DNA from: Eledone cirrhosa
Taxonomy: Eukaryota
Reading direction: 5' to 3'
Assembly (NCBI GenBank): GCA_964016885.1
Contig: OZ024760.1
Span: 6,014,001 to 6,078,000 of the forward strand
DNA: 64,000 nucleotides
Shown here one piece after another: positions 12,531-12,730 of the stretch (its first letter is position 1; each line of letters begins with the position of its first letter). The notes under the pieces were generated by a model that was given only the letters and a program-made list of their open reading frames with translations, was not told the origin of the DNA and made no database searches. The position numbers and the translations under genes are program-made.

Positions 12531-12730
12531 GTTGTGGTAAGGAACCAGATGGACCATAACGCACCAGAGTACTCAATATTTATGGTAGTAGAGTGGGTAA
12601 TAGGAAAATGTAAGACCCCGACGGCAGAGCTCAAGCCGTTTCGACGGCTATTTCTGGACGCTATTTCTGAGTCCAGAAATAGCCGTCGAAACGGCTTGAG
12701 CTCTGCCGTCGGGGTCTTACATTTTCCTAT
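12531..12730. mobile_element. Fold-back half-hammerhead element family A, copy 1
   Basis: Perfect 60-bp arms 12600-12659 / 12671-12730; each arm reads GAAA-CGGC..GCCG-UC-GGGG; lies in (TA)n. Confidence 0.8.

Follow-up and report, generated by a model that had tools for sequence, protein, structure and literature searches.

Locus-mirrored arm variants in short palindromic, putatively Penelope-like insertions of a microsatellite-rich animal DNA

The 64-kb window, i.e., the whole stretch of DNA that was analysed, is animal DNA rich in microsatellites and contains four palindromic insertions of one family (termed family A) in which variants characteristic of a locus occur in both arms of the palindrome. 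We infer that these insertions, as well as those of a second family (family B), are Penelope-like elements (PLEs) reduced to their pLTR end. Their arm symmetry was probably made at insertion from one template, either by twin priming or by snap-back.

Setting and anatomy of the insertions

A reading frame at 11341-11628 represents a CARD exon according to Pfam and exhibits 90% identity to ZO-1 from Octopus sinensis and 86% to that from Argonauta, matches by which the host is judged to be an octopod. The 52 kb following this frame showed no further ZO-1 exon. As the CARD exon is the only ZO-1 exon that maps in the window, the elements of both families likely reside inside a long ZO-1 intron. Tracts of (TA)5 or longer make up 7% of the window, and microsatellites dominated among the matches listed by a generic repeat finder and a whole-window Rfam scan.

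A hairpin scan combined with BLAST within the window located the family A palindromes at 12600-12730, 15260-15375, 42424-42536 and 49677-49792 (copies 1 to 4). They form parts of insertions of about 200 nt each (12510-12730, 15183-15375, 42424-42613 and 49600-49792) that are flanked by (TA)n on both sides in all four cases, the left tract of copy 1 being interrupted. The order of elements is (TA)n, a single-copy tail of 76-78 nt, long arm, centre, short arm and (TA)n. The arms are arranged head-to-head, such that both represent the same sense strand when read outward from the centre; sense orientation was assigned from the outward-facing hammerhead-like core and the tail. The short arm ends at the identical base in all four copies and the long arm continues through the tail. 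Breakpoints are identical at the four loci while the flanks are unrelated, and no target-site duplication is readable outside the (TA)n tracts. The palindrome of copy 1 is a perfect inverted repeat of 60 bp (0/60 arm mismatches) with an 11-nt centre. The features of both families are as follows:

12510-12526, minus strand: terminal fragment of copy 1, 17 nt that duplicate the arm's 3' end and carry variants private to copy 1
12524-12599, minus strand: tail of copy 1, 76 nt, single-copy, continuing the long arm
12571-12594, minus strand: tail stem-loop with a 2-nt bulge, common to families A and B
12600-12659, minus strand: long arm of copy 1, sense on the minus strand
12620-12642, minus strand: hammerhead-like 3' half core in the long arm of copy 1 (GAAAC, helix III with palindromic loop, GUC triplet)
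12660-12670, no strand: centre of copy 1, within which arm sequence bearing a copy-1 variant is tandemly duplicated through slippage
12671-12730, plus strand: short arm of copy 1, equal to the long arm over 60 nt, end base as in all four copies
12688-12710, plus strand: hammerhead-like 3' half core in the short arm of copy 1, a descriptor match
12728-12751, no strand: (TA)n tract, flank common to copy 1 and a family B copy
15183-15375, minus strand: family A copy 2, with its tail at 15184-15259, its palindrome at 15260-15375 and a loop that reads in the sense of the short arm
42424-42613, plus strand: family A copy 3 (palindrome 42424-42536, tail 42537-42612), centre 2 nt shorter, 1-nt deletion in the long arm only
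49600-49792, minus strand: family A copy 4, with its tail at 49601-49676 and its palindrome at 49677-49792; the loop has the opposite orientation to that of copy 2, and only the long arm bears a substitution
42636-42813, plus strand: B1, with short arm, 2-nt centre, long arm, tail of about 62 nt, near-complete hammerhead core and a 1-nt insertion in the long arm only
44286-44400, no strand: B2, two short arms, tail-less, 0/56 arm mismatches, (TA)n on both sides
12752-12864, no strand: family B-type copy, one inverted arm with the tail directly after
14720-14849, plus strand: family B-type copy, single arm and tail, without inversion

The terminal fragment of copy 1 differs over its 17 nt at one position from the arm of the same copy, at four from copy 2 and at three from copy 4. 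Its start is 5 nt away from the position at which the short arm ends, and its junction with the tail is a 3-nt microhomology spanning the predicted hammerhead cleavage site, i.e., the base of helix III. The fragment likely records a first attempt at reverse transcription that was broken off, after which synthesis jumped to the end of the tail; this false start may be due to run-off at a cleaved RNA end or to pausing at a hairpin, both of which fit equally.

Family B (42636-42813, 44286-44400, 12752-12864 and 14720-14849) shares the layout of family A. The arms of B1 and B2 are identical except for the 1-nt insertion, and their centres are identical, so that this pair adds no evidence on mirroring. 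The inverted arm of the copy at 12752 ends elsewhere than the other short arms. The tail stem-loop begins 5-6 nt 3' of the short-arm end in family A, B1 and B2 and lies 48, 48, 48 and 53 nt from GAAAC; likeness equal to that between the family A structure and the 14720 copy was found in 2/5000 shuffles and for family A versus B1 in 108/5000. For two of the four family B copies, the adjoining (TA)n tract also borders a family A copy (12728-12751 and 42614-42635; P ~0.04 for random choice among 89 tracts), possibly as a result of homing beside related elements or of co-insertion. On the opposite strand, the tail end of the B-type copies (12840-12864 and 14825-14849) may resemble a tRNA T-arm/B-box.

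Several further repeats were observed in the window. The region 49275-49419 has terminal inverted repeats of about 37 nt with ends resembling the family A tail end, is flanked by (TA)n and carries a degenerate CUGAAGA...GAAA motif on the minus strand. A palindrome with 39-bp arms and without GAAAC at 2052-2141 is bracketed by a direct repeat of about 45 nt of flanking sequence. A MITE-like repeat with imperfect nested inverted repeats is located at 13714-13893 and has related ends at 31-772 and 14308-14365. The only retroelement-like frame in the Pfam scan (43554-44252, minus strand, 233 aa) features a PHD finger and a region resembling an RT C-terminus and presumably is a fragment of an RTE-type LINE.

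Variation in arms and centres

Seven of the 54 columns common to all eight family A arms vary. Five of these are mirrored in both arms of a locus, four being private to copy 1 and one common to copies 1 and 4, while two are restricted to a single arm: the long arm of copy 3 lacks 1 nt, and that of copy 4 bears a substitution. Arm distances within a locus amount to 0, 0, 1 and 1, as compared to 4-6 between copy 1 and the other copies. An arm phylogeny, as had been proposed in the first-pass annotation of this DNA, was run on the window's four copies and paired the arms by locus: parsimony required 7 steps for the tree of locus pairs and 12 for the best tree separating left from right arms, and an AU test of two fixed trees (locus pairs vs. 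left/right) yielded P = 1.5e-5. Both results reject independent divergence of the arms from one ancestral palindrome, which that annotation had likewise disfavoured; the chance of five identical independent substitutions is ~5e-8. The motifs it quoted are all present in the four copies and its palindromes are real. Its statement that arms agree within a copy and differ between copies holds for the five mirrored columns but neither for the two single-arm sites nor for copies 2 and 3, which are alike; as these two copies have no private mirrored variant, the mirroring signal rests on copies 1 and 4. The tail, the changing centre, the terminal fragment, the unmirrored sites, family B and the element class had been overlooked.

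The tail of copy 1 differs from the other three family A tails at 8-9 of 76 positions, while those three differ mutually by 2-3. The divergence of copy 1 is of similar degree in arms (5/54) and tail, and its two arms differ at 0/60 positions, whereas 12.6 arm differences would be expected had this divergence arisen in place uncorrected. Copies 2-4 exhibit 2-3 arm changes vs. 5.7 expected from tail singletons, which is a mild and non-significant deficit (P 0.08-0.18). Variants private to copy 1 recur in two unpaired places, the terminal fragment at 12510-12526 and the centre duplication. Both of the 1-nt indels that affect one arm only fall in G runs. RNA editing was considered as the origin of the mirrored variants and rejected because none of the five is A-to-G in sense (0/5).

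The centres of the four family A copies are all different. A 6-nt loop is present in short-arm sense in copy 2 and likewise, minus 2 nt, in copy 3; it is inverted in copy 4, and the slipped duplication in copy 1 is bordered by loop bases at either end. Copies 2 and 3 agree in subfamily as well as in loop orientation, so that the two are confounded and the orientation may simply be inherited. The centre would correspond to loop II of a helix II closing with G-C ahead of GAAAC. For two identical cDNA ends reaching 6-12 nt past the loop, computed energies are -8 to -28 kcal/mol for the duplex vs. -2 to -12 kcal/mol for the hairpin; with the 2-nt loop of family B and 5 nt overlap the values are -7.1 vs. 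-0.8 kcal/mol in the same order.

Hammerhead-like motifs and element class

A descriptor search detected GAAAC, helix III and GUC in 8/8 family A arms, as compared to 3/5000 shuffles for copy 2 and 21/5000 for copy 1. Short arms of family B contain UGAUGA, a 12-nt spacer, GAAAC, helix III and GUA, the full core occurring in 4/5000 shuffles; the helix in family B arms has 4 bp, and the 3' half alone is found in 289/5000 shuffles vs. 4/5000 together with the box. The cores of both arms face outward. The 3' half of the PLE hammerhead consensus, including the palindromic loop 3, fits the arm motif (PMC4209133). A CUGANGA box is absent from the family A arms, and family B, which has UGAUGA at the centre, lacks C3 as well as the G10.1-C11.1 pair. 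Rfam searches of four sub-regions returned no hammerhead at threshold, with a sub-threshold match to Hammerhead_HH10 (E 1.7) in one and nothing in the other three. The 5' strand of helix I falls upstream of the truncation point; the copies are cut at ribozyme helix II/core and are probably not active ribozymes. The sequence upstream of the family A centre has no other occurrence in the window, so that the native helix II and the 5' box of this family are not visible. A permuted (type II) hammerhead was considered by eye for family A and dropped, no CUGANGA following the putative helix I.

Outward GAAAC within 35 nt of the centre occurs in 4/7 palindrome families of the window vs. 0/7 for inward GAAAC (post hoc P 6e-5). 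Older head-to-head palindromes at 8181-8297 and 8433-8550 (75% self-identity and 3/57 mismatches, respectively) with outward GAAAC and small helix III-like stems likely represent additional families of this type. A canonical minimal-hammerhead PLE end is located on the plus strand at 30298-30848 (core at about 30720-30760) as a partial tandem, with 30298-30377 repeated at 30769-30848, indicating that such elements occur in this genome. Short tandem duplications at about 29990-30240 precede this end. An isolated GC-rich GAAAC-stem-GUC motif (14912-14933, minus strand), present as a single copy in the window, lies between microsatellites.

In 150 of the 151 filtered reading frames of the window, Pfam yielded no match for a reverse transcriptase (RVT) or GIY-YIG domain, i.e., no autonomous partner; because no such gene was found in the window, PLE membership is argued here from the structure of the insertions. 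Truncated or non-autonomous copies would be expected to lack these domains. An inverted, 5'-truncated copy in head-to-head orientation is present in all four A copies, B1 and B2, a one-sided tail in 4/4 A copies and B1 but not in B2, and microsatellite/AT-rich target sequence, i.e., (TA)n on both sides, in 4/4 A copies and B2. These traits are set beside the description of PLE insertions as often carrying an inverted 5'-truncated copy, a tail of 30-40 nt at one end and a (TA)n bias (PMC8557442). A direct pLTR pair is found in none of the A or B copies, the 17-nt direct fragment of copy 1 being the only direct repetition; absence of the tandem is expected where insertions are shorter than one pLTR. 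Neither family is built of directly repeated units that all contain a full type I hammerhead, as is typical of retrozymes, nor do inverted repeats form both termini as in MITE/TIR elements, since the tail lies outside one arm in 5/6 palindromic copies. Helitrons/Helentrons were considered and dropped, as matching termini appear to be absent. An exact-motif scan of bacterial and archaeal genomes returned 0 loci.

Possible origin of the symmetry and relation to known systems

We tentatively consider that a twin-priming route taken by a PLE enzyme may explain the four hairpins. A Penelope-like reverse transcriptase/endonuclease, encoded elsewhere, would copy both arms off one RNA, or off two from one source. 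The enzyme would nick both strands of a (TA)n tract; one nick would prime at a distal start site, giving rise to long arm and tail, and the other at a proximal site just 5' of the conserved tail stem-loop, yielding the short arm, while use of the proximal site by both nicks would produce the tail-less form of B2. Both cDNAs would halt at the hammerhead helix II/core, some 18 nt beyond GAAAC; being self-complementary there, their ends could anneal or get joined, with the centre in either orientation or with small slips, before fill-in by host repair. With one source RNA, any source variant would show in both arms and later point mutations in one arm only. Pairing of the arms by locus and a layout equal to that of published PLE insertions support copying at insertion. 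The proximal start site is supported by the short arms ending at one base in 4/4 A copies, 5-6 nt before the stem-loop, and likewise in B1 and B2, and the copy 1 fragment, which starts 5 nt from the short-arm end and carries copy-1 variants, points to this end as a priming site. The outward-facing hammerhead-like cores, the differing centres of the four A copies, the duplex energies, the canonical PLE end at about 30720-30760 and the properties of a purified PLE protein (PMC11167929) also speak for this route. The identical centres of B1 and B2 count against a junction rebuilt at each insertion. The deviating arm end of the 12752 copy, the missing RT/GIY-YIG matches in the window, the incomplete hammerheads, the long tails, the confounded loop orientation and the mild arm deficit of copies 2-4 likewise weigh against the route. 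The sample is tiny (4 + 4 copies), and mirrored information comes from two loci.

Snap-back would explain the mirroring as well as twin priming does. Here a PLE would act with the same timing through a single cDNA, the end of which folds on the helix-II-like centre, primes itself and joins the target at a TAT microhomology, loop orientation being inherited from flip or flop master copies; we regard this course, including the inherited loops, as somewhat unlikely. Self-priming has been proposed for palindromic PLE junctions, with alternatives left open (PMC3846280), the family A centre sits where loop II would be, copy 4, copy 1 and the tail-less B2 fit directly, and the identical B centres agree with inheritance. 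However, the cDNA would have to halt at one base in 4/4 copies though its template runs on into the tail, two master orientations (copies 2/3 vs. 4) are needed, the hairpin on the 2-nt B loop is the weaker structure by the energies given above, and the copy 1 fragment marks the short-arm end as a priming site. Symmetry could also have been restored rather than made at insertion, the palindrome being copied whole from masters, and DNA template switching or hairpin conversion acting in the masters or after insertion and inverting the loop. Template switching generates multi-base compensatory changes and loop inversions (PMC8794818), the mirrored divergence of copy 1 (5/54) lies near that of its tail (8/76) as complete conversion predicts, and copies 2-4 show the arm deficit noted above (P 0.08-0.18). 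Variants private to copy 1 nevertheless sit in unpaired positions beyond the reach of conversion, single-arm changes in copies 3, 4 and B1 stayed uncorrected, and other palindromes in the window retain 1/39 and 3/57 mismatches or, at 8181-8297, are 75% self-identical; conversion would thus have been complete in copy 1 and absent elsewhere. Of the two origins offered in the first-pass annotation, templating at insertion and conversion within the hairpin, these observations favour the former, and restoration of symmetry appears unlikely.

A foldback or MITE-type DNA transposon targeting TA microsatellites, with arms as terminal inverted repeats co-selected by the transposase, is a very improbable source. 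DNA transposons with this target preference exist (PMC4486113), palindromic Harbinger repeats are known in frog (PMC5625713), and B2 on its own resembles a MITE, but the true termini are not inverted repeats in 4/4 A copies and B1, where a tail of 62-78 nt lies outside one arm. The asymmetric ends largely refute this interpretation; in addition, a copy with a single arm plus tail exists at 14720, and cut-and-paste transposition offers no route to mirrored internal variants. An assembly, library or polishing artefact is hardly credible. Long hairpins are hard to sequence and both 1-nt indels confined to one arm are situated in runs of G, yet the four loci share their breakpoints although their flanks are unrelated, mis-mapped reads used in polishing would favour the majority sequence over private variants, single-arm differences survive, and the tail of copy 1 is as diverged as its arms.

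Formation of tandem and inverted PLE ends is stated to be unresolved (PMC8557442; PMC3846280), and the in vitro PLE study halts before the second-strand steps (PMC11167929). A PLE specialist will find the structure of the insertions unsurprising; the insertions carry, however, internal markers (arm variants, loop orientation, tail side and false starts) by which twin priming, snap-back and DNA conversion can be separated by counting, making the mechanistic question countable. By extrapolation, six palindromic A/B copies per 64 kb would correspond to a very large genome-wide sample, perhaps thousands. Given the likely location in a ZO-1 intron, perfect dsRNA of 55-60 bp would form in the pre-mRNA. 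Octopus has been reported to show very high hyper-editing and to possess an exceptionally large share of loci that can fold into near-perfect dsRNA (PMC5625713). It is conceivable, though doubtful, that very abundant miniature PLE derivatives in octopod genomes rebuild a perfect hairpin at each insertion by double priming through a dimeric enzyme, twin cDNAs of the same ~60 nt annealing at the hammerhead helix to give parvovirus-like flip/flop centres. Flip/flop terminal orientation is a parvovirus trait. If double priming applies, the insertions would constitute a genomic fossil record of inverted-end formation in PLEs and a retrotransposition-driven supply of intronic hairpins made of perfect dsRNA, in those animals in which A-to-I editing is highest.

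Twin priming as favoured here invites comparison with L1, in which a second target nick primes a second cDNA and causes inversion, the two cDNAs covering adjacent, largely non-overlapping parts of the RNA. Unlike in L1, both cDNAs would here cover the same ~60 nt and thereby yield a perfect hairpin; for PLEs, no description of twin priming was found in the mainly open literature. Template-switch mutation in hairpins likewise produces mirrored multi-base changes and loop inversion but acts in DNA replication and leaves the tail, the fixed short-arm end and the terminal fragment unexplained (PMC8794818). Non-LTR retrozymes (PMC7229834; bioRxiv 10.64898/2026.07.22.740005) are also short non-coding PLE-derived units with type I hammerheads; they are direct tandem repeats with complete ribozymes, whereas families A and B form inverted pairs with the 5' core cut away.

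Four window motifs gave 0 matches to the Naiad 3' ends described in the available part of the PMC8557442 supplement, and the Naiad ends of O. bimaculoides, O. vulgaris and O. minor given there did not match the window elements by eye. A weak, unaligned likeness to the Naiad_Mmer 3' UTR from the same supplement was seen by eye for 42657-42677 (family B arm) together with 42769-42779 (tail motif). The paper on O. vulgaris repeats reports 31 recently active Penelope-like families and, in its available text, contains no passage on palindromes or hairpins (PMC13282606); the repeat library behind it may contain families A and B. ORF-less palindromic pLTR insertions of ~200 nt with mirrored variants or flip/flop centres were not found described in the mainly open literature, Repbase lying outside this search.

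The purified Poseidon protein from Anolis (PAc) cleaves and extends both strands of an AT-rich target, is predicted to form a dimer and initiates synthesis at two sites inside the RNA, by which a tail is delimited; inverted products were not reconstructed in the available text of that study, while families A and B are known from DNA alone (PMC11167929). As in Penelope/Poseidon, Neptune, Nematis, Hydra and Naiad, the arms are inverted with a palindromic junction and an optional extension at one end, the target is (TA)n without discernible duplication, and the repeat carries a hammerhead-like core (PMC8557442; PMC3846280). Differences from published PLEs concern the restriction to a ~200-nt pLTR end without ORF, the truncation of both arms at nearly one position, tails of 62-78 nt instead of 30-40 nt, the incomplete hammerhead, and the locus-mirrored variants and flip/flop centres, which are seen here and were not found described for PLEs in the available parts of these two sources. 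By this comparison, the layout of families A and B appears to be one already known for PLEs, and their insertion to work like PLE insertion.
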